A program made the position numbers and the translations under genes. Positions 16,376 through 53,064 of a stretch of 64,000 nt of DNA are shown here, one piece after another (position 1 is the stretch's first letter; every line of letters begins with the position of its first letter). The notes under the pieces were generated by a model. It did no database searches. It had not been told where the DNA came from and saw nothing but the letters and a program-made list of their open reading frames with translations. This DNA is from Cenococcum geophilum (Eukaryota), in the NCBI GenBank assembly GCA_050273025.1, contig CP158635.1, positions 682,001 through 746,000 of the forward strand, written 5' to 3'.

Positions 16376-17700
16376 CAATTACGCGAAACGCGAATACTAA
16401 AGTCAACTTGAATCTCATCCTGCGAATATTTTCCCGATGTAGTTCTCTACCTACTAACTATACTCTAATTTTATCTAAAATAGCTTAACGGAGAGCAGTA
16501 ACTCTAGCGGCTTTATTTTAATCTAGTTTACTAATAAGGCCTAAAAATTCTGAAAAAAAGCTAGTAAAGTATCGGTTCCGTTATTATAGGTTTTTAAGTT
16601 TAATAATAGCTATATATTCGCGGCTGGCGTTATTATATATTTGTTCTAATAGAGAGATAAAGATTTTAAAATTAATAAAGGTGCTGTTATAAAAGAATAG
16701 GTCTATAGTTCGTATAGCGTTTTTGCTTAAATAAGATATTCTATAGCTAATCTTGCTAGCTTTAGTAGGGTATTAGTTATAGTTTATTAAAAGTTTAAAA
16801 TAGAGCTTAGTTATAAAGGGATATAGGTTATTTTAATATCTATTAAACATTAGAGGGTTAGGGAGCTTTTTAAATTTTATAGTAGGTACTAGGTTTATTA
16901 TAGGTATGGGTTAAGCTACTATTACTAGTTTAGGGTTTGTATTTAATAGGTTGGGTTCGCATATAGTTATTTTAATTTTATTTATAGGTATTATTATTAG
17001 GGTTTCTAACGCAAATACTTTAGCGTCGTGAAGTTCTTTATATATTGCTTTAATTAATTACTAATACTAAGCTTTTAGTATAGTTTGTTACTAGGCCAAG
17101 GCATCTATAAAGGACTGTTATATTATAGTCATTTATTCCCTAACTAGGGCCATAATAGTTAACGTGGCGGATTTAAGTTCGTTTGCTATTTTAAGGGTAT
17201 TAGTATTAACGCAACGTAATATAAAGGCGCGAAGAGACTTTAGGGAAGATTTAAAGGAATGATATAAATTCTATCTAAATTTAAGGGTATATAGCTCTCG
17301 CTAAGAATAAGACGTTGCGTAAAGAAGAGAAAGGAATAACAAGAGAATTATATAATTAAATAGTTAGGGGCTTAGTGGTCGATGCGTGCGCATATATACA
17401 CGCGGTCTTTAACGGACTTCGGTAATTCGATTAATCTAGTAGATTTTGGTTAAAGCGTTAGAATTTATCTGTCGAGTGTTTTACCGAGACATTCCTACTA
17501 TAACTGGGCTAGTCCCGTTACACTTATAATAGGGAATTAAAAAAGGGCGTTTGCTAAAACGGTTAACTAAGATTATAACTAAGATTATAACCGTTACGGT
17601 TTACTAGTAGTTTATAAAAGTCTATAGAGATATACTATTAGGGGCGCTCTAATATCGGGAGTGGCTTTAATAGTCCTAGGGTTTTATCTTGTAGGATTAT

Positions 17701-18019
17701 CCCTTATAACGCTGCTTCGCGTCTAACGGTTATTGATAAGGATTAGCTAATTAAATCGTTAGGATAAATAAGTCGTGATAAGATATTTAAAGCTTTTAAT
17801 ATGTATATAAAATGCTATATAAGCTTGATTTTTGGTAGAGAGTTATGTAATATATAAGCCCTAGCACTCGTCCTTTCTGCAGAATGGAATTCTACAGGCG
17901 CGATTAGAAGGCATAGTGGTTAATTATATTTCTATATAATTGTATAGACGCGTTTACAGACATTTGAAAATGGTGTTTACGCATAGACTAACTCTTATTA
18001 GACGCTAGCGTTGCAAGGG
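17701..18019. mobile_element. MITE (319 bp) with CCC...GGG ends, inserted in the integrase of A
   Basis: TIRs CCCTTATAACGCT / AGCGTTGCAAGGG (identical after de-RIP) plus subterminal GCGTCTAA / TTAGACGC. Flanks TTAT and ATAA. The homologous position in G (~48946) is uninterrupted. Confidence 0.87.
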
Positions 18020-21000
18020 ATAAACCTACGGTAGTTATTATAGTTCTATATATAACGGTTAATATCTATAACTATTCCGGGCTAGTAGTAACGGTTACTA
18101 ATAATTTTATAGGTCTTATTTTTTTTAGGGTAAGCCGTAGAGACCTAGGTATATGCTTTAGTAATAAGCCAGGTTTATAAGTTCTATTCTTTTACTACTA
18201 CTAGCCGTTTCTAGTACTTAAGCAGTCTATTTTTAAGGGACTATAGGCTAGTAATATCCTTTACCTTTTTACAGTACTCCTATAGAGAAGGGTCCGTATA
18301 GTTTGCTTATAGTAGTTTATTAATAAGGTTAAAATTTATAGGGTTAATAGGATATATCTCGGCGCTTAAAGATTTAGTACTTAGTTCTTCCCGTATTTAA
18401 GGGTTAAGATACTCTAGTTATAGTAGCGTTTAAATCCGTAATAAGATCTTTACAGCTATCTAGTTATTTAAGTCCTATTTACGCCTTATAAAAGCGTCCG
18501 CATAGTTAATAGCGCCGGGCCTATATATAATTAGGAAGTTAAACTAAGATAGAATATCTGCCTAGCGCGCCTACCAGGCCGTAAGGGCTTTTATTATTAT
18601 AAAATATTCTAAGGCCTTATAATCTAAAACCACTTAAATAGGTTTAGGGGTCCCTTTTAGCTATACTCGCTAGTTCTAAAAGCTATAAATAATAGCCAAT
18701 ATTTCTTTATTATAAATTGGGTAGTTTAGCTTAGTATCTATTATAGTCTTTAAGTAGTAAGTAATAGGGTGCTATTCCCCATCTATCTGCTTTTGGGAAT
18801 AAATACTAGCAATAATACTATCTAAGGCATCCGTTTTTAGTATTAAGGGCTATTTTAGGTTAAAGTAGGCGAGTAAAGGAGCGAAGACTAGCTATTTCTT
18901 AAGTTTATTAAAAGCCTGCCTATATACAGTATTAAAGTAAAAGGGCCGGTCCTTTATTATAAGGCGGCTAAGGGGCTAAGTAATTCTACTGTAGTTCTTA
19001 ATAAAGCATTAGTAAAAGTTATAGAAGCCTAGGAATAACTATATCCCTTTTACGGTCTATAGTAGTTCCTATTAATTAATTACGGCTGTCTTTTCTAGGT
19101 TTACCTTAATTCTATTTATACTAATAATAAACCCTAGGTACTTTATTTACTTTATATTAAACTTTAACTTTTTAATATTAGCCTAGAGGCTAGCCTTATA
19201 GAGCCGTTATAGAACTTTATAGACGTGCTCCTTATATTCTAACTTATTTTTAGAGTAAATTATAATATTATCTAGGTAGGCTGTATAGAAGTTATTAAGG
19301 TAGTTAAAGAGTATATTATTTATATATTGTTAGTATATAATAGGTTCGTTAGTTAGTCTAAAGGGGAGTACTTTATATTTATATAATCCGTATTAAGTCC
19401 GAAATATAATAAGGTCTATAAATTTAGGGTTTATTTTAATTTGGTAAAAGGCCTAGCGGATATTAAGCTTTATAAATACCTTAGCTCTATTTATTTAGGC
19501 CAACGTCTTATCTAGTAAAGGTAGTAGATAACGGTCTTTACGGGTTATATTGTTAAGCTTATAGTAGTTAATATAGAAATAAAGTCCTCTATTTAGCTTT
19601 TTTATAAAGAAAATAGGGAAGGTAAATAGGGCCTAACTAGGCTTAATAAACCCCTTTACTAGGTTATCTATAATATACTACTTAGTAGCCTATAATTCGG
19701 CAATAGATTATTTATAAAGGGGGGTATAGCTAAAGACGTTTTCCTTATCTAGTTTAATCTCGATCTTATAGTCATATAGTTAGTAGGGTAGGAGTATATT
19801 AGATACTACCTTAGAGAATATATTTTTAAACTCTTAGTACTAATAGGGTAGTTTCCGTTCTACTAGCTCCTTATTTATAAGCTTATCCTCCTCTTAGACT
19901 AGGGTCTCTTTTTCTTTAATTATTTAATTAATTTTATATAAGCTAGTTATAAAGGTAATGGTATTTAGCTAAACTAAGTTCTAGTAGAATCCTATAGCAT
20001 TAATATAGCAGATATTAACTGGTAGGAGGTCCGTAGGTTTCTTTACGGATATTTATTAGGCCGTATTTTGCGGTATAAGGTTTATAGTCTTTCTTAGCTC
20101 GCATTCTATTTTCTATAAGTTATCCTTTTAATTTATTAGTTTAGTATACCGTCTAATATTCCTAGCCTTCTATTATAGCTATATAGGGCTTAGGTTCTCT
20201 ACTAGGGACTTAGGTAAGTCACTATTAACTTCCTAAGTCTATAGTGCGGGTAGCGTAATATAGGTAGTCTAGGGGCGGCGTAGTATATAGATCCGTTGCA
20301 GGTTAAGCTATATATCCTTCTTAAAGGCCTAGTCTTTACATATAGCATCGGCTTAGTAAATAGTATTAATCTAGGGTTATACTAGGTTTTCTATTATAAT
20401 GCTAATTTTTTTTTATAAAAGAAGGGGTTAGGGGTAAGGTTTTAGGCTAGATAAGCCGTCTACTTTATATATTAAGCTATAAGCCTAAATAGGCTAGCTA
20501 TTTCCTTCCTAAGATTATATTATAGCTTCTAAGGTCCGTAATTAAGAAGGGGATATTATACTACCTTCGCCTATTAACGCGGAGGTATATTCGCAAAATA
20601 CTTATAATAGGTTGCCTTACCCGTCCATTATACCCGCAAATAAGAATTAGTTTAGGTAGGTCTTCTATAGGTATATTAAGAAAGTTAGCTAGCTTTATAG
20701 CATACTAGGTATTAATTAGGGTAAAGGTATTTACTTTAGAGTTAGCTAAGGTAAAAGTTAAAACTTAATATCTATTACGGAATAAAGTATAAGGGATAGT
20801 GCAGCTTCTTCTACTAACTAGCCAACCTAGATTAATATATAATATATTAATCCCTTTTAACCCTAAAGAAGAGTCTTTCTCTAGGGTTCCTCTTTTTTTA
20901 ACTCTATACTATCCTCCTAGATTAATAAAACCTTATCCGCTTTTACCTTTATTAGGCAGTTCCTTATAGGGTGGCCTTTTTAACTATATAAAAAGTAAGC

Positions 21001-34100: not shown

Positions 34101-37100
34101 ACTATAAAGGACTTAACGCTATTACGATTAAAAACTAATACCTAGTACTGCTTATATATAAGATCCTTAAGCGGCTTAGTTAAGCCAAAATCTATATTAA
34201 GCTTAATATTATTGCTGCCTTTAACTGGCTCTAAATATAGGAAGATAGTAAATAGAAAACCGCATTCGTATTATACTTTAGCTAATTTAAATATACTATT
34301 ATGCCCTTTAGCGTATATAACGGCCTAGGCACCTTTTAAAGCTATATTAATAACGCCTTACGGGACTACCTTAATAACTTCTACTCTGCGTACCTAGACG
34401 ACATACTTATTTATAGTAATAACCTCTTTAAGTATACTAAACATATTTGAAAGGTCCTATAGCGCCTTAGGGACGTAAGACTTTATATTAATTTAAAGAA
34501 ATGCGAAACCCTAATTATAGAAGTAAAATACCTTAGACTAATTGTTATTACTAAGGGTATCTATATAGACTCTAAGAAGGTACGTATAATTACTAAATAG
34601 TAAGCCCTTAACTGCATTAAGGATATATAAGCCTTCCTTAGTTTCACTAACTTCTATTCAAATTTATATACAACTTCTTAGGCGTAGTAGTACTATTTAG
34701 AGCAATAATGCGAATAAAGGGCCTTTCTATAAAAGGAAGAAAAACGTACTTACGCTTTACCTAGATGCCTAAATGCAAGAAGGCGTTCTAAGACCTTAAA
34801 AATGCCTTTACTAAAGCACCTATCCTAGCTTACTTTACACTAAGATAACAACTCTACCTTAAAACCGACTCCTTAGACCACGTTAATGTAGGCGTTCTCT
34901 TTTAGATAGGTAATAACAGTCTTCTTTACTTAATCGTATTCTACTTATCTAAGTTTATATTATAAAAGTATAACTATAAAATCTATAATAAAGAACTCCT
35001 TATAATTATATAAGCGTTTAAAGAATTTTAACTAGAACTCTTTTTAGTAGAGCTTAATTAGCTAACTAAAGTCCTTACGGACCATTATAACCTTAAGTAC
35101 TTTATAACTATAAAGCAGCTAAACTAACGCTAAGTATATTAGAACGAGTTCCTCTCTAGTTTTAACTTTAAAATTATATATAGACTAGAAGTATAAGGTA
35201 CTAAACTTAATAGCCTAATACGCCGCTTATAAGACCTTCCTTAGTCTAAAGATAACCCTTATAATTAGTTTTAATAATAGATAATCCTAAAAGTACGAAA
35301 TTTGGCCCTAGGTATACTACCTATAATTATTACGGCTTAAACAAATACCTCTAAACCGAAGCTTAAACGAATACTATATTACAAAGATACTAAGCTAAAG
35401 AGAAGGAAAAGGGGTCGCTAGGACCGATATAAACAAATATATAGGGTGAGCCGCTAAGGCGCTAGCTTTGGGCGGGCCAAATTATAGGTTAGCAGAATAT
35501 GGCAGAATTTAGCAGGTAACGTGCGATAGCGCTATTACATCACCCCCCTCTTTAAAAGAAAAGCCTACCCTTAGGCTTAGTTAGAAATAGGGTAGGATTA
35601 TAAAATATAAAATAAGGAGATAAAGGGGGTATAAGTATATCTAGACTAAGTATAAAGGGCAATTATAGGCTAAGTAGAAGCACTAGGCTAGAAAGAGTAG
35701 CTACTAAAAGTCTTAGCACGGATCTAACTAATTAGATAACTTTAACCGGCGGTTAAAGTTCCTTAATATCTGAAATTTTACGGTACTAGCAGAAAACGGC
35801 AAAATATGGCAGAATTTGGTAGATAGCTATATTAGGGCTTTGGGGCGTTTTTGTCCCTATATTCTTCCGGTAACTTATTATCTTTATTATATTAGCATTC
35901 TATTTATTTATCTAGGTACTTTAGGGGTCTAGGTATATTAGGGTATTAGTTATAGAATTCCTTAAGCTTTTAGGGGTAGCCTATAAAGTTCTATATAGGG
36001 TACTAGGTTAGGTTAAAATTGTAGCCCTTCCATTAAATATAGTATTTTAGCGTTCCCCGTACTATCTTATAGGCCAGTATTTTATTAACCTCCTATTTAT
36101 TATCACCGTTTACTTAAACTAGTAGGAAAGGCTTGTTCTTTTGTCTAGGTAATAGGTTATTTATAGCTTTCCGTAACTTATCTAGTAAAAAGATAGGGTA
36201 AACCCTAATTAAATCTAGGAGCTTTATCTTATATAAGTTGCCTATCTTCTTAAGAACTTTATATAGTCCTACTATCTAATAGTCCAGCTTATAGCTAGGT
36301 TATTCGGTCTTCTAATTCCTTATTATAACTTATACTATATCGCCAGGGGCAAAATCGGGCTCTTAACGGTGTTTGTTCGCCTACTATTCTATTAACCTCT
36401 AAGCTTTTTCTAGGTTCTCGTGGGCTACTATCTAGGCTTCCTCTAATCGTTTAGCGTACTATTAGGCCTTAGTATAGGATAGCTTTTTTTGTATAGTCTA
36501 GGGTTCTTCTAGCCTTTTCTAGTTAAAGCTTATATGGGGTAAGTATCCCATTTCTAGCTAAATTAGGGTAAACCCTGTAGAGTTATAGGGTAAGGTTGCT
36601 TGCGCGTAGTCTATTAAGGGTAGTAGTTTAGACCAGTTATCCTAAAAATAGTTAATAAAGGGCCTAAGCCTTTAGTCTAGGTACTAATTTATAATCTCTA
36701 TCTAACCGTCTATCTAGGGGTAATAAGCCGTAGAAAGCTTTAGCTTAATACCTAGGATTTAGGTAAACTTATTCCAGAAGGCCGATATAAACTATAGCCT
36801 ATAATTAGATATAATAGTATCTAGTAGTCTGTAGATTTAGTAGACGTAATAAATATATAGCCGGGCTACCTCTTTAGTATTAATATTCTTATAACAGGGA
36901 ATTAAGAATAGGCGTTTACTAAAGCGGTTAACTATAACTATAACTATATTATATCTGTTATGGTCCCTAGGTAGTTTATAAAAGTCTATAAAGATATACT
37001 ACTAAGGGCGCTCTAGTATTAAGAGTGGCTTAAGTAGTCCTAGGGTCTTATCCTATAGGATTATAGCTCTCTAGCAGTCTTTACAGTTCTATATATATCG

Positions 37101-43640: not shown

Positions 43641-46600
43641 GTAACTTACCTAGTTTAATAAAAGAATACACAGTAAAAAGATACTGCTTTTAATTAATGG
43701 CTTTAGCGTCTATAAAGCAGCTATTTAAATACTTATTAAGAATGGCTCTCTTAAGAATATACGCGTAGAGTTCCTTCCTCCTAATTATACCTTAGTATAT
43801 TAGCCTCTTAATTAAGGGATAATTATAAACTTTAAGCTGCTCTACTAGCGATACTAGCTACGATTTATAGTAGAGGTCTCGCTTTAAAATAAGAATCTAA
43901 TTAAGCAGATATACGTTTTATAGGTAATTTAATAGTTAGTTAAAGCTTAGAAGGAAGTTATACTATAGATAATTAAGAATTACTTTATTAAATCTATATT
44001 ATTTAGCTCTTATATAGGCCTACAGCCTTACCCTTAAGATTATTTAGATCCTCCTATGGTTAATAAAATATAGTAAATAGTAGAACAGCTACTTATAGCA
44101 GGAAGGATTTACGCCATAATAAATATTTAGAAATTTATTAAGCTACTAGGTAAGGAAGTAGAAGATTTTTCTAAGGATCTTATTAAGCATATAGTAGAGC
44201 TCTATATAGGGCCTAATCGCGATATAAAGACGGATAAGGAAGCTATTAAGTAACCTTAAATTAAACTTAATAAGGCGCTTATGGCCTTATTATTACGGCA
44301 CTAGTAAAACTTAGCAAAACTTAGCAGAACTTCGCACCGGCAAGTTGCCACAGATTGCCACAGATTGCCGTATATTGTAATTACGTAACGTAAAGATCTT
44401 ATAAAACACCGAACGGCGCTACTCTTCTTCTCCTTTCCTTTCCCTAGCTTTAGATTCTCGTTTATAGACAATCCAATCATACAGGCTTACGCGACCCTTT
44501 TGCCGTGCTTATGTCTCGATTGACTAAGTCGCTAATATTATCTAAAGCTTACTCTACTCTTTCTTCCTAAGAAGGAACTTAAATATATCTACTAAAACAT
44601 AGAATAGGACCATAACGATAGGACCTAAAAGAAAAAAACAGAACCCTAAGAAAAGGACCTACAAAATACGCATAGACTAGAACCCCTAAAGAAATTACCC
44701 AGAATTACCTAATACCCCTACTACCATGCCACAAACCATAGCAGTAGGTAAAGCAGCTGTAGGACCCTTAAATACTTCAGACGAAGAAACAATTAACGTT
44801 TTAACCCCCTAGGCGGAGCTTACGGCTGCTAATACCGAAATTAAACGACTGCGAGAGCTGCTTAAAGCTAGAGATACCCCTATATCTAATAATAAGTCAT
44901 TATTAGACAACTAAAGACTTACTATAGTCCTTTAGGCTCTATCCTAGCGCCTTAATGGACCTACTAAGGCCTATATAGCACCGAAGCGGTCGGCAAAGGT
45001 CGCGGATCCCCTACTACTTATAGACGGAACCGACCCTATATTTGATAATTGGAAGCTTTAATTATAGAATAAGCTTAAAGTTAATGCAGACCACTTCCCT
45101 AATGCCTAAGCTAAAATGGCCTACGTTTTCGGCCGTATTAGCGGAGACGCCTAGACGCATTTACGCCCGTAATACACTAAAGACTTAGCAGACCCCTTTA
45201 TCTCTAAAGAAGAAATAATTAAATACTTATCTTCTATTTATAAAGACCCTTTTAAAGTATAAAACACCCGCCTTAGCTATAAAAGCCTAAATATAAAAAT
45301 AATGGAGACCTTTTTAGCCTTTTAAACCCGCTTTCTATACCTGGTAGGACAGGCCTAGATCCCCTAAAAAGACCTACTACTAGACCTCTTTAATAAGCTT
45401 ACCCTAGACCTATAACGGGCCGTATTACTAGCTTATACTATAGTATAGACGTTAAAGGAACTTATGGACTATTACCTAGCTATTAACTAAGGCCTCTATT
45501 AAATTAAGGCACGCGCTGACTAGCTAAAAACTAGAAACCTTATAAACTAGGCCGCAAGTACTATAAGTACGGCCCGTAGTGCCCCGGTATAATTAGCAAC
45601 TCCTATAGTTAACCTAGCAGCTAGCTACGCAGCTACCCCTACTATAGGCCTAGTGTATACCCGGCCTATATATAGCAACCCCTATATATAGGCCCTTAGT
45701 GATTAAAAAGCTTACTTCTTATATAGTTAAATAGGCCACCCTATAAGGAACTGCCTAATAAAGGCAAAGACAAATAAGGTTTTGTTAATTTAGGAGGATA
45801 GTACGGAGCCGGAAAAAAAGGAACCCTAGAGGAAGACTCCTCTTTAGGGTTAAAAGGGATCGATATATTATATATCAATCTAGGTCGGCTAGTTAGTGAA
45901 AGAAGCTACACTATCCCTTGTACTTTATTTCGCAATAAATATTAAGTTTTAACCTCTGCTTTAGCTAACTTAGGAGCAAATGCCTTTACCTTAATTGATA
46001 TAAAGTGCGCTATAAAACTAGCTGACTTTTTAAATATACCCCTTAAAGAACTGCCTAAACTAGTCCCTATTTACGGTTATAACGGATAGATAGGACTACC
46101 TATTATAACTATCTTATAAATCTACCTCCGCGTTGACGGATAAAGGTAGTATAACGTCCCCTTTCTAATTACGGACCTTAGAAGCCATAATATAATCTTA
46201 GGGAGAAAATAGCTAGCCTATTTAGGCTTATAGCTTAATATACGGCATAGGCAGCTTATCTAGCCCAAAACTATACCCCTAACGCCTTCCTTTATAAAAG
46301 AGATTAGTATTACAATAGAAAACCTTATACAGCCGTAGATAAACACTATTTATTAGGCTAATGCGACGCGTAGGGACTAGGCTTTTAAGAAGGATGTATA
46401 GCTTAATCTATAACAGATCCGTATACTATACCGCCCCCAGACTGCCTATATTATACCACCCGCACTAAAGACTTAAGAAGTCGATAGTAGCCTAGCTAAG
46501 TCCCTAATAGAGAACTTAGGCCCTACGCAGCTATAAAGAAAGGCCAGGGACATTGGACAATATACCAAACTAATAAACCGGAAAGATAACTTACGGAAAA

Positions 46601-48436
46601 TAGAACGTAAGCTAAGGAAGACCATAAACCTTATACCGCAAAATACGGCCTAATAAATATCTATAAAGAAACCTATAGACCTCCCACCAGTTAATATCTG
46701 CTATATTAGCGCTATAGGATTTTACTAAAACCTAGTTTAGCCTAATACCGTTACCTTTATAACTAGCTTATACGAAATTAATTAAATAATTAAAGAGAAA
46801 GAAGCCCTAGCCTAAGAGAAAGGCGAGCTTATAGATAAGGAGCTAGTAGAACAAAAACTACCCCGTTAATACTAGAAATTTAAAAATACCTTCTCCAAAG
46901 CAGCGTTTAATATACTCCCGCCTCACCGACCGTACAACTATAAGATTAAAATTGAGCCGGACAAGGTGGTTACCCTTAGCTATAGCCCCCTCTAATAGCA
47001 ATCTACTGCCAAATTATAGGCCATAAAGCAGTATCTTATTAATAACCTAGATAAGGGCTTTATTAAGCCTAGTTAAGCCCCTTTTAACTTACCTATTCTC
47101 TTTGCCAAAAAGCTAAATAGAGGACTTTGTTTCTATATCGACTACTATAAGCTTAATAATTTAACCCTTAAAGACCGCTACTTACTACCTTTACTTAATA
47201 AAACTTTGGCCTAAATAAGTAAAGCTAAGATCTTTATAAAAGCTTAATATCCGCTAGGCTTTTTACCGGATTAGGATAGACCCTAAATTAGAAGACCTTA
47301 CTATGTTTTAGACCTATTACGGAACGTATAAATATAAAGTACTGCCTTTTAGACTAACTAACGGACTAGCTACATACCAACAATATATAAATGACGTACT
47401 ACTTAACTACCTTAACGACTTCTATATAGCAACCTAGATAATATTATAATCTACTCTAAAAACGAACTGGAATATAAAGAGCATATCTATAAAGTCCTAT
47501 AACAGCTTTAGGAAGCTAGCCTCCAAGCCAATATTAAGAAGTTAGAATTTAGTGTTAAGCATATAAAGTACTTAGGGTTTATTATTAGTATAAACGGGAT
47601 CGAGGCAAACCTAGAAAAGACGGCTATAATTAACTAATAGGTACCCCTAAGGACCGTAAAGGGGGTACAGTTATTTTTAGGGTTCTATAACTTCTACTAA
47701 CACTTTATTAAGAACTATAGCAGAATTACCTGGCTATTAAGCCTACTTACCTATAAGGACCGGCCCTTTTACTTTAACACTATATATAGGCAGGCCTTTG
47801 ACGAGCTTAAGAAACGACTGGTCTCTACTCCCTTACTCGCCCACTTTGACCTAAAATGGCCCTTAATGCTAGAAACCGATGCCTTAGATAGTATTATAGC
47901 TGGCGTTTATTCCTAAAAGTAGATAAACGGAGAATAGCACCCTATTGCTTACTATTTAAAGACTATAGTAAATGCTGAGCTAAACTACCTAATTTACGAC
48001 AAAGAAATGCTGGCTATTATCTCTAGCTTTTAGCACTGGCGAGCCTAACTAGAAGGCACCCCTAAGTCTATCTAGGTAGTTTCCGATCATAAGGCCTTAA
48101 AATATTTTATAATAATAAAGGCCCTTATAGCTTAATAGGCGCGCTAAGCGAACACCCTATCTTAGTTTAACTTCCTAATTATATATAGGCCAGACGCCAC
48201 TAACCGTGTAGACGCTCTTATAAGGCGTAAACAGGATATAAATAACTAGATAGCCGTAAAGATCTTATTACAGACCTAAGCGCTACTACGACTAGAGCAC
48301 CTTGACTTATAAATACAGGCAGAACTAAATACAAACTCTTTAGATGCTAAGATATGCCCTATTGACTCCATAGAACTAAACCTTATTAATAAACTGCTGT
48401 AGGTAAACCGTACGGCCCCTTCTCTATAGGAGTACC

Positions 48437-48692
48437 TGTAAGGGTACTTTTGGTCCCTTACTCGGCTACATCCCGGGAGCTCTCAGGGGCTGCCAAGGCT
48501 AGCCTTCGGCTAGGCCTTGGCCACCCCTTATAAGCTCCTCGGGCTTGCAGCCTCCTTCCTCCCCCATCGGTTCGTCTCCGTACGAGGCTATTGCCTACTC
48601 TTTACCATATCGTCCTCTTCCATCGACTCCCTATGTGACTCATGCTCGGCTTGCCTGCTCCCTACCGTACACCCTGGCAATACTGCCTTACA
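48437..48692. mobile_element. Solo LTR (256 bp) of another family, inside pol of G
   Basis: TGTAAGG...CCTTACA ends, TSD GTACC (48432-48436 / 48693-48697), TATAA motif at ~48527. GC-rich relative to its surroundings. Confidence 0.9.
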
Positions 48693-50200
48693 GTACCGTA
48701 ATAAGGCAAAGAACGTCTCTAGCCCATAGTCCCTTAAAAGTGGACTACTTAAGCACCGCAAACAGCTAGTAGTAGTAGAGGAACAGAACTTACGGACTTA
48801 GCTTATTGCCGAAGCACATACCTAGGTCTCTACGGCCTACCCTAAAAAAAATAAGACCTATAGGATTATTAGCGACCGCTACTACTAGCCCGGAATAATT
48901 ATAGATATTGACCGCTATATACGGAACTGCAATAACTACTATAGGTTTATAATTCCACGAGATAAAACCCTAGGACTATTAAAACCCCTCCTAATACCTA
49001 ACTGCCCCTAGTAATATATCTCTATAGACTTTTATAAGCTACCTCTAGACCATAACAGATATAATATAGTTATAATCCTAGTTAACCGCTTCGGCAAGCG
49101 CCTGTTCTTAATTCCCTGTTATAAGAATATTAATACTAAAGAGGCAGCCTGGCTGTATATCTACTATATTTACCGAATTTACGGACTATTAGACACTATT
49201 ATATCCGACCGCGGGCCGTAGTTTATATCAGCCTTTTGGAATAAGTTTACCCAGATCTTAGGCATTAAGCTAAAGCTTTCTATAGTATATTACCCCTAAA
49301 CAAATAGCCAAACGGAGATTATAAATTAATACTTAGACTAGAGACTCCGGCCTTTTATTAACTACTTTTAGGATAACTGGGCTAAACTGTTGCCCTTAAT
49401 AGACTACGCCTAAGCGACCCTACCCTACGACTCTACCGGATTTGCCCCTATTTAACTAGAAATGGGTTACCTACCCTATATAAGCTTTGACTAGGAAAGA
49501 CTAAAAGGGCCCTAAACTATATATGAAAAACTATCTTATAAGGAAGCCTAGTAGTACGCTAAGCGCTTAGAAGAAGCCTAGAAAGTAGCCTATATAAACC
49601 TAAAAAAGGCCCAGAAATTAATAAAATAGTAGGCGAATAAGTATAGGCGCGAGCCTAACTTTACTATAGGTGATATAGTCTAGGTTATAATAAAGAACTA
49701 GAAAATAAAACAGCCTAGCCGTAAGCTAGACTATAAGATAGCAGGACTATATAAGATCCTTAATAAAGTAGGCAACTCGTATAAGGTTAAGCTCCCAGAC
49801 TTAATTAAAGTTTACCCTATCTTCTTACTAGATAAGCTATAAAAAGCTATAAATAACCTACTACCCAGACAAAAGAATAAACCTCCCCTACTAATTTAAG
49901 TTAATAGCGATAATAAATAGGAAATTAAAGAAGTGCTGGCCTATAAACTTATAAAGGGAACGTTAAAGTATCGTATTAATTAGAAAGGATATAACCTAAA
50001 CCCTACTTAGTACCCTATATAGAACTTTATAGGTAGTTCCCATAAGCTCTAAGAGTTTTATAGCTATTACCCTAGTAAACCCAGACCGCTAAAGTACCTA
50101 GACAAGTAGATAGAATGCTAGTATAATAAAGATAATAAGTTACTAGAAGAATATAAGGACAAGAACACCCCAGAAATTTCTTAGTTATATAAGGTGTTGA

Positions 50201-50261
50201 GATATCTAGGAACTTCAACCGGCGGTTAAAGTTGTCTAATTGGTCAGATTCTTCTGCCAAG
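50201..50261 (+). promoter_or_regulatory. Conserved 3'-UTR module of Gypsy elements (other copies at 9822-9883 minus, 35712-35770 minus, 43250-43312 plus); function unknown
   Basis: Four copies of GATATYNAGGAACTTYAACCGNCGGTTRAAGTTRTCTRATTRGTYAGATY-(n)-TGCYAAG in the same sense orientation within elements C, F, E and G. A regulatory role is inference. Confidence 0.55.
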
Positions 50262-50561
50262 ACTTTTAGCGACAAAGCCTGAGGGCAGGCTTTTTTGGAG
50301 GGGGGGGTAATGTTACGGCACTGGCAGAACTTAGCAGAACTTGGCAGAACTTCGCACCGGCAAGTTGCCACAGATTGCCACAGATTGCCGCATATTGCAA
50401 TTACGTAACGCGAAGATCTTATAAAACACCGAACGGCGCTGCTCTTCTTCTTCTTTCCTTTCCCTAGCTTTAGATTCTCGTTTATAGACAATCCAATCGT
50501 ACAGGCTTGCGCGACCCTTTTGCCGTGCTTATGTCTCGATTGACTGAGTCGCTAACATTAT

Positions 50562-50858
50562 CCCATGCAACGTTGGTGTCCTACTACAGGTGGTCCGTGC
50601 GGAACACCAGAATTAGAAAGATTAATTTAATCAACCACCGTGCCTTCTAATTGTGCCTTTTTTGATTCTAATATCGTCCAACCTACCAAATGCGTCGTTC
50701 CTCCAACTCGTAGCAAAAGAACTGTCTCCGGAGCTTTGGCGGCTGCCTTCGAGCCCTTTGCCAGAGCTTCATATTCCTCATCACAGCTCTAAGATCCTAA
50801 CGATTTAATTGGCTGGAGCTTATCGATAAGAATAGGACTCAAATCAACGTTGCAAGAG
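50562..50858. mobile_element. MITE (297 bp), same family as 17701-18019, opposite orientation, inserted in the pogo transposase
   Basis: TIRs CCCATGCAACGTTG / CAACGTTGCAAGAG, flanks TTAT and ATAA. Internal blocks match the other copy in reverse complement (ATTAGAAGGCACGGTGGTTGATTA; AGCCAATTAAATCGTTAGGAT). Confidence 0.85.
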
Positions 50859-53064
50859 ATAAAAGCTTCGTCTTTATAAGGAGTAGCAAAGCAATTCTAA
50901 TAGAGACATAATTACGACTCTATTAAGGCATGAGCGTTAAATTTAAGGCCGACGACCTTAAAACACCAAGCAGCAATTAATCGCGACGTATTTTAGTGTA
51001 GCCGATCGCTTAATTACGAGTTTACGCACGTAGATACATAATATTATTACCTAATTTTAATCTTGGGTGCATTTTATATACAAGTATGCAATATAACGAT
51101 ACCCTTAGTATTATAATACGCTCGGCCGAATAAACCATATCGTATTAAAGAGATTTTACTGTACAAAAATTGTTAAAATTAATAATATTATGCACAATGA
51201 CTTATAAGATCTAATTTAATGCTTGGTAATTTTTACTTTCTATAGGTTTACTTAATAAATTTTAAATGCGCACGTATCGTGAGCAGGCCTGAGAGTTATT
51301 TACTAATACATCTTGCCTTATTTTTACCACCTTAACTCTAAAAATCTTTAATATTTAATATCTTTCAGTATTGAACATATTATATTGATATTGACATTGA
51401 CGTTCAATATTCAATATTGAAAATTCAGTAATCAATATTCGATATTGATAAGAGCACTGCCTCGCAGGCGGAAGGCCTACGACGAGCCTCTTATCCAAAC
51501 CGCCCTCTACCCCCTCTATACCTTAATCCACCCAGCGGATTCTAATACGTAGTGCAGCGCGGGTACTTGGCTATAGGGACTTGGTGCACCCCTACAGCCA
51601 GTACTAGGTTGAGCGCGCTATTGGATGCAGGGAGATAGGGGATAGGGTACCTATTGTAAGCTTTTGCAATGTGGGAATTGAACGAGCGACTTAATTGTGA
51701 ATGTAGCTCTAAAGTCTATATATATACGAGGTGGTAGCAAGAAGATGACGACGATGATCCACAATCGCCACTGTAGACAACGCCACTCAGTCGGTGATAG
51801 GTAATAGAAATAGGTAATGGAGATAAGTAGTGAGATATGCGATGGCAAGAAATAGGGTGGCGAGTTATAAGGTAGTGCAAGCTTTAGTACCGGTAGTCGG
51901 TTACACACACCCCCAGATTTAATGGTGTAGTTAAAGCTATAGAAAACAAAAACAAAGGTAGAGACTATATTAAATAGGAAATTTAGATGCAATTTAGGAG
52001 TGGTAAGACAAGTAGGTCTCACATGTGTGCTTACACATTCGTGTCACACCGCCAGAAGAGACCCTCCCGGCGCAGTAGGCGCAGAGTAGTTCGTCCATAA
52101 GCAGCATCCTGCCTGGCCCACAACCCTATGAATCAAACACCAGCAAAGCTTGGCGATCAAACTTTTATTAAGGCACGTTTGTTCTTAAGAATGGTAACAT
52201 TTTCAGAAAAAAAGACGCAGCAAAACCGACGGCGACTTTGCCATCGAAACAAGAGAAACTAGACCAACCAATTCTCAAGATATACTATGACGAGATGACG
52301 AAAGGTAACAAGCCGGGTACAGAAAATGCGAGGTTTCTTAATTCACAAATAATGATGGGACTTCTGAGGGCCGCCGACTTTGATTGCGACCCTTTGACAA
52401 GGACGTCTTGAATTCTATTCGGCATTTACAGCAGCAACGTCGTCTTCTGGGCCTAAGAGTAGAAGCAGGCGGCTGAGAATCATTCGGAGCAAGCCTCTTG
52501 GAGGTTAGGAATGAGGCTTACGAGACTATTGGATTAGAAGGAGTATGATACGCGGAATGCAAAAGGCTTGTACGAATGGCTTGTTTAAACTTTTATTATA
52601 TTTGTACAAGAGATCACTTGACTCAAAGGTCAAACTAACCTGTAATTAGACCGTCCCCTAGCGGGACACATACATAGCTATATCTTTTGAGCTAACTTTA
52701 ATGCTCTCCATCTTCCTTCTCACTGCAATCCACAGAATACCTCAAAACCCATCCGCTACGTCCGTGTAAGTCGTCTGGAGAACCCGGTCCGAGAATCCGC
52801 TAAGGGATGTCGCGACACGTCACCAGGTAACTAGCGGGGGTGCAAGCAGGGAAAACCAGACGCTCGCTGCTAGCGAAGTTAAAGCTGACGAGTAGATCGT
52901 TGTGTATCCTTTTTGGAGCTTCGGATAAAATAATGCTGAGCGTTGGCATGCTCATAAATATCTCAATTGTGAAGTTTGGATATGCCTGCACGCCGGATCG
53001 ACGTGGGTATCACAAATATCAAAACTTTAGTGGAAAAGACAACTTGCCCAGCGTCTTGCAGCCT

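Follow-up and report, generated by a model that had tools for sequence, protein, structure and literature searches.

Two MITE-like elements in a RIPed repeat island of Cenococcum geophilum probably derive from a piggyBac clade that inserts at TATA

Two short elements in a RIPed repeat island

The window, i.e. the whole 64-kb stretch of Cenococcum geophilum contig CP158635.1 that was analysed, is a RIPed repeat island in which two short elements, copy 1 and copy 2, interrupt other transposons (Table 1). Together with their flanks, the copies read TTAT[CCCTTATAACGCT..AGCGTTGCAAGGG]ATAA and TTAT[CCCATGCAACGTTG..CAACGTTGCAAGAG]ATAA, respectively, and both are bounded by terminal inverted repeats (TIRs) of 13–14 bp. 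Rereading of the sequence gave the same coordinates, ends and TTAT/ATAA flanks as an earlier, sequence-only reading of this DNA. The copies have opposite orientations: their reverse alignment scores 142 against a shuffle maximum of 82.5, while their interiors in the same orientation do not align (score 42.5, shuffle mean 44.9).

Table 1. Positions of the two elements, their duplicated bases and their neighbours in the window.
Feature	Position	Strand	Remarks
Copy 1, non-autonomous piggyBac derivative	17701..18019	-	319 bp; RIP-mutated; parent type L114
Copy 1 TIR, core RIP-changed	17701..17713	+	from end sequence
Copy 1 TIR, core unmutated	18007..18019	-	from end sequence
AT, left member of 2-bp duplication, site 1	17699..17700		overlap 2 in 29/29 empty paralogues
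AT, right member of 2-bp duplication, site 1	18020..18021		from empty-paralogue comparison
LTR retrotransposon, TTAT on both sides, 4 bp from copy 2	44291..50557	+	includes an uninterrupted homologue of site 1 (48947-48952)
AT, left member of 2-bp duplication, site 2	50560..50561		overlap 2 in 29/29 empty pogo paralogues
Copy 2, non-autonomous piggyBac derivative	50562..50858	+	297 bp; nearly unmutated; parent type L093/L111
AT, right member of 2-bp duplication, site 2	50859..50860		from empty-paralogue comparison
Presumed pogo-like DNA transposon, RIPed, host of copy 2: 3' remainder	50859..51025	+	upstream part ends at 44290

The host of site 1 is an LTR retrotransposon. An uninterrupted homologue of this site is present within the window and reads TTATAA (48947-48952, - strand), which confirms the empty site given by the sequence-only reading; a second in-window homologue reads TTATAG (37061-37066). 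Copy 2 lies in a RIPed DNA transposon which we take to be pogo-like, following the earlier label and its translation. This host is also broken by an LTR retrotransposon 4 bp away. Because that retrotransposon (44291-50557) directly adjoins copy 2, the left flank of copy 2 is just 4 bp long, and the host resumes upstream of 44290. One RIP-made hexamer was used by two elements, copy 2 and the adjoining retrotransposon, in either order. The TTAT duplication of the retrotransposon (44287-44290 and 50558-50561) lies directly against copy 2.

Parent elements and superfamily

The ends CCC(T/A)TGCAACG are common to both copies and to elements of 2.2 kb, which were recovered in the search for an autonomous partner that the sequence-only reading had proposed and which encode a piggyBac transposase. 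Copy 1 consists of the first 118 and the last 201 bp of the 2242-bp L114 type, with 264 of 319 bases identical in two blocks. Copy 2 corresponds to approximately the first 246 bp (gapped) and the last 95 bp of the 2250-bp L093/L111 type, with 263 of 297 bases identical. The two parent types are 74.5% alike, and either copy resembles its own parent more than that of the other; the alignments therefore identify the copies as separate deletion derivatives inside one piggyBac clade. This corrects the earlier view of two diverged copies of one family, as the parents are different and the orientations opposite. Copy 1 differs from its sister copy L002 at 28 positions, all G>A or C>T, and copy 2 from its sister copy L032 at three.

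Both copies show the features of MITEs, being short, TIR-bounded and non-coding, with the ends of an autonomous partner and as repeats of uniform length; the short elements form length classes near 140, 275, 297 and 330 bp. Searches of the 178-Mb genome of the organism with copies 1 and 2 returned at least 44 and at least 49 matches, respectively, with 40 candidates scored in each case. The same genome contains 154 exact TIR ends (control pattern 0) and 268 ends under a RIP-tolerant pattern (control 3). The MITE subfamilies are small, none exceeding some tens of the copies recovered.

In the parents, paired ends approximately 2.25 kb apart flank a transposase gene with the Pfam domain PF13843 (E=8e-41). 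The PDB matches of the encoded protein are limited to piggyBac (6x67) and piggyBat (9c0f), and a protein search gave 110 matches among the 105 scored of 930 candidates. The DDE_Tnp_1_7 domain (PF13843) contains the three catalytic aspartates, in the motifs AVDE, LDNLF and GGVD of the 643-residue L115 frame, and a C-terminal cysteine-rich domain, recognised by its sequence pattern CxxC...CxxC...C...H, could be aligned to piggyBat. The TIRs likewise agree with those of piggyBac (12–19 bp, initial C), CCC being present at 141 of 152 curated ends. As the same-ended 2.2-kb parents encode a piggyBac transposase, the superfamily of both window elements, which the sequence-only reading had called unclear, is piggyBac and not ISL2EU/Spy. 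The 4-bp TTAA target-site duplication that is the hallmark of piggyBac was observed in 0 of 91 called elements and the surplus is 2 bp; the elements are therefore a piggyBac-derived variant, not canonical members. These 91 elements result from best-pair calling, used in place of a loose TIR pairing that gave 249 mostly false pairs.

When no empty site is considered, TA[TCCC..GGGA]TA is the natural parse, with a TA duplication as in Tc1/mariner-like elements and as read for the truffle element Ti_tr1 (PMC3864998). An ISL2EU or Spy element would be a related choice, as ISL2EU makes AT duplications (PMC4482050), and such a duplication is present here. With a TA duplication the empty sites should read TA, but they read TATA. 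ISL2EU has GG ends, an A|AT|T target, two ORFs (THAP-DDE and YqaJ) and an animal range (PMC4482050); the present elements have CCC ends, a TATA target and a single PF13843 gene, and they show neither the AAATTT target nor the PHIS-type transposase of Spy. These readings, to which we attach next to no probability, are ruled out by the TATA empty sites and PF13843.

Target sequence

The flanks of the 91 called elements read TAT|ATA in 77 cases, AT|AT in 80 and TTAT|ATAA in 7. Almost the same picture emerges for 59 elements found by patterns without flank letters (52, 54 and 6, respectively). The sequence-only reading had regarded TTATAA as the target of the family, but this hexamer is found at 7 of 74 TATA sites, compared to 9.2% of background TATA (p=0.84), and is outnumbered by CTATAA, CTATAG and CTATAC among the insertion sites. 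Because 7/74 matches the background rate, the hexamer is not the target; the target is TATA. The flank comparison across copies suggested by that reading hence retains a constant TATA core (77/91), with variable outer bases. In unRIPed flanks, TATA is present at 25 of 27 sites, compared to 7.9% of background NATN, and insertions at TGTA or TACA were found at 0 of these 27 sites. The 25 of 27 indicate that TATA is intrinsic to target choice and not a later RIP artefact.

The same flanks are found at 26 of 30 transposase loci of related subfamilies with other TIR cores, as well as in three metagenome assemblies, where 29 of 30 elements with CCC ends show them. For the latter set, 71 of 80 loci were examined, 36 of which had no usable inverted repeat and 5 a non-CCC inverted repeat. 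The metagenome elements are 66–98% like copies in the organism's own genome and may stem from close relatives.

Duplication size and insertion geometry

At each window site, the flanks overlap by exactly 2 bp (AT) in all 29 empty paralogues, and the modal overlap is 2 at 25 of 27 insertions for which the loci analysed include an empty paralogue; the exceptions are L034, with overlap 0 in 2/2 paralogues, and L126, which is ambiguous in a tandem repeat. As read from these alignments, insertion adds the element and 2 bp (AT), in agreement with the alternatives of the sequence-only reading, an AT duplication or an equivalent blunt insertion. The letters are identical for both, and the AT duplication is favoured because piggyBac TIRs open with a conserved C and require a 3'-terminal G (PMC5381638). 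The same properties argue against a blunt TA|TA insertion without duplication by the same piggyBac clade, which would have true ends TCCC...GGGA and a Spy-like geometry. Such an insertion would give the identical outcome at TATA and would suit the near-invariant first flank base (113 of 118 ends), but a metagenome element that reads TAT[CCC..GGG]GTA, a single case, is easier to explain with a target-derived base, and we consider the blunt cut unlikely.

The enzyme PiggyMac has a 4-nt cut geometry. This domesticated piggyBac cuts at ends flanked by TA, one copy of which remains (PMC8086355), and suggests a further geometry for the present elements, with a 4-nt stagger shifted one base into the element, a dinucleotide-centred cut and a mismatch repaired at each end. 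One end (L041), which reads GG-TATA, is in line with it. However, a shifted stagger predicts many terminal C residues replaced by a target base, whereas CCC is retained at 141 of 152 ends and a single end fits, and this geometry is exceedingly unlikely.

In the favoured geometry, a transposase of the piggyBac clade would move both MITE-like internal deletions in trans. Because the elements share the CCC...GGG termini of other piggyBacs, the enzyme would join the 3'-terminal G to each strand at T^ATA, with a 2-nt stagger and duplication of AT. This would probably proceed through the hairpin mechanism of piggyBac, with the loop shortened, and TATA would be regained upon excision. The structures of T. 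ni piggyBac bind hairpin and target in a single 4-nt conformation; Y439/N440, together with R275, Y283 and K290 of the omega loop, hold the TTAA loop of 4 nt and the target (PMC7351741). In the parent transposase R275, Y283 and K290 align to T/M, N and P, respectively, with the YN pair retained. A tyrosine at position 283 occurs in 2 of 113 loops, judged by eye, among the 150 best matches. On the basis of these alignments the omega-loop changes are to be seen as a correlate of the altered target, not as its mechanism.

RIP at the landing sites

The 29 paralogues of site 1 read TTATAG (16), TTATAA (8), TTGTAG (3) and TTGTAA (2), and the 29 paralogues of site 2 read TTATAA (18), TTACAA (9), TTGCAA (1) and TTCTAA (1). 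Unmutated precursors are thus kept in 5/29 paralogues of site 1 (TTGTAG/TTGTAA) and 10/29 of site 2 (TTACAA/TTGCAA). They match the coding sequences TCT ACA ATC and TTA CAA from which the sequence-only reading had derived the targets, and its claim that RIP made both window targets is upheld. Once the element is inserted, the duplicated base beside the TIR belongs to a CpC dinucleotide, and in the pogo copies the mutated fraction is 0.21 for CpC compared to 0.65 for CpA. RIP before insertion is much the likelier order at both sites, because CpC change is rarer, 141 of 152 terminal CCC are intact and 0 of 27 unRIPed sites are TGTA/TACA insertions; for any single site the order is likely rather than certain, because non-CpA contexts also mutate.

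Precursors of RIP at the inner positions are seen at 8 of 27 testable insertions, including site 1. The young copy L115 lies in a tandem array, in a unit reading TATA; the other units of this array read TGTA (11) or TATA (6). In one DNA run, the site of L116 reads CATG in a paralogue without insertion. The flanks of L115 and L126 represent insertions into GC-rich tandem arrays with units that vary at RIP sites, and related arrays recur at other loci and in the window.

Distribution of copies relative to RIPed DNA

As background, 40 evenly spaced 8-kb stretches were taken from contigs C1-C4, with one on C5, and flanks were classed as RIPed or unRIPed by threshold values. RIPed flanks account for 77% of positions (bootstrap 65–88%) and 93% of 7188 TATA sites (bootstrap 89–96%) in these stretches, with a TATA density of 29 per kb in RIPed and 4.8 per kb in unRIPed DNA. 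In contrast, RIPed flanks surround 38 of 76 curated copies (42 of 91 uncurated), a deficit that is stable across five thresholds. Before this count, curation removed 15 rows: 11 had no AT|AT, owing to mis-pairing or the lack of a terminal base, and 4 were nested or mis-paired. A RIP-tolerant census of contig C1 comprises 35 events, of which 13 are RIPed, 14 are not and 8 are unseen; if all unseen events were RIPed, the upper bound would be 21/35 (60%; p=3e-7 relative to TATA, 0.045 relative to positions). Compared to the density of TATA, the recovered copies are under-represented in RIPed DNA, a depletion that is perhaps partly ascertainment, as the searches favour intact copies and miss those decayed past the pattern. 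In the metagenome elements 21 of 29 have RIPed flanks as a raw count, and a bystander search of loci not picked for piggyBac gave too few matches for a density test.

These distributions bear on the feedback loop of the sequence-only reading, in which the family prefers RIP-made TTATAA and genome defence steers elements into safe havens. Such a loop would be consistent with both window targets and several others being RIP products, with the roughly sixfold higher TATA density of RIPed DNA and with the TATA unit chosen by L115. Against it stand the background frequency of TTATAA, the 38/76 RIPed copies, set against RIPed shares of 77% (bases) and 93% (TATA), and the C1 census with at most 21/35 RIPed. 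The enrichment check that accompanied the proposal, relative to target density, gave depletion instead; attraction into RIPed safe havens is not supported by the recovered copies, and the loop is very unlikely. In another fungus, MITEs are mostly located outside large RIP regions, as reported (PMC9970103).

RIP (CpA>TpA, TpG>TpA) would raise the TATA density in repeats about six times and appears to be the source of the TATA used at the two window sites and in a fair proportion of the other insertions into repeats. It supplies most genomic TATA and perhaps 40% of used targets, the latter figure being half of the copies multiplied by the RIP-made share. RIP would thus act as a passive supply of targets, with insertion or survival tilted to unRIPed DNA. 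The connection to RIP is genuine, if modest: the defence provides targets but does not attract the element. In the literature covered, no description of RIP creating transposon targets was found. Overall, it is highly probable that the elements are MITE-like deletions of a fungal piggyBac clade with a TATA target, a duplicated AT and a passive target supply by RIP.

Relation to known elements

Like canonical piggyBac elements (T. ni, PDB 6x67/6x68; piggyBat, PDB 9c0f), the parents have a PF13843 DDD transposase with a C-terminal cysteine-rich domain, CCC...GGG TIRs of 13–14 bp, a length of about 2.2–2.5 kb and a fixed AT-rich palindromic 4-mer as target. Unlike them, they target TATA, leave a surplus of 2 bp (AT) where canonical elements duplicate the four bases TTAA, lack the omega-loop residues R275/Y283/K290 and contain one intron. 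They thus represent a well-supported piggyBac variant that differs in its target and in the length of its duplication. In the literature covered, no AT-duplicating, TATA-targeting piggyBac was found beyond the non-TTAA truffle case. The Repbase subgroups piggyBacA and piggyBacX have non-TTAA duplications.

PiggyBac is known in Pezizomycotina (PMC5751038), and a 2013 truffle paper describes a piggyBac-like element without TTAA (PMC3864998). This element, Ti_tr1 of Tuber indicum, is likewise an ascomycete PF13843 transposon, but, compared by description only, it is single-copy, has 52-bp TIRs and was read as making a TA duplication (PMC3864998). IES excision by PiggyMac shares a piggyBac-family enzyme and ends flanked by 2-bp repeats of which one copy is left behind, although the enzyme is domesticated, the repeat is TA and not AT, TIRs are not recognised and no mobile element is involved (PMC8086355). 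ISL2EU and Spy, of the PHIS superfamily, resemble the present elements in their AT duplication (ISL2EU) or lack of one (Spy) at an AT-rich palindrome, and differ in transposase family, ends, coding capacity and target (PMC4482050).

A survey of 157 elements gives TTAA as target and takes rare other flanks as mutations (PMC5381638), and the filter of a large mining study requires a TTAACC motif with up to two mismatches (PMC13461360). With the TTAA duplication treated as the piggyBac hallmark and mining filtered on TTAA, TATA/AT elements are likely to have been missed or mis-annotated as TA-duplicating.

A candidate active element and minor observations

The elements L115:1401-3656 and L116:1401-3656 differ at 1 of 2256 bases and occupy different sites. 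Their frame of 643 residues has no stops, one GT-AG intron and no RIP, while most other copies in the genome carry many stops. In 4 of 24 listed runs that were used, contigs, which give neither strand nor level, skip the intron exactly in two metatranscriptome runs and keep it in a DNA run; RNA run X21 covers only element ends of relatives. L115/L116 is, by its sequence, a candidate active element, and an intact, spliced and recently duplicated copy makes it directly testable how the stagger changed. We see about even chances of a widespread, still active fungal piggyBac clade in which the omega loop was rebuilt so as to give a 2-nt stagger at T^ATA, with seamless excision. If so, it would break the rule that ties piggyBac chemistry to a 4-nt TTAA loop, and would provide a natural, footprint-free transposon for TATA, a target mass-produced by RIP.

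Several further features were observed in individual copies. At L005:1500, L082:1261, L035:1788 and L013:1799 the ends are apparently one terminal C or G short with the AT flank kept, which may reflect slippage, assembly error or imprecise joining. A member of the 140-bp family is nested within another member at L081:1184-1891, and in the regions L072:1372-1713 and L089:1269-1715 a short member apparently lies inside a related element with CCCATGCGCC ends. At L295, the inverted repeat around a piggyBac-type transposase match is 47 bp long and lacks CCC ends, which may represent a different type of end. Finally, a palindrome resembling CTTATCGATAAG close to the 3' end and GCGGGAACACCAGAAT close to the 5' end are common to subfamilies with different TIR cores; these subterminal motifs, located in L111, L115 and at positions 17726-17765 and 50795-50840 of the window, are possible candidates for transposase binding sites.
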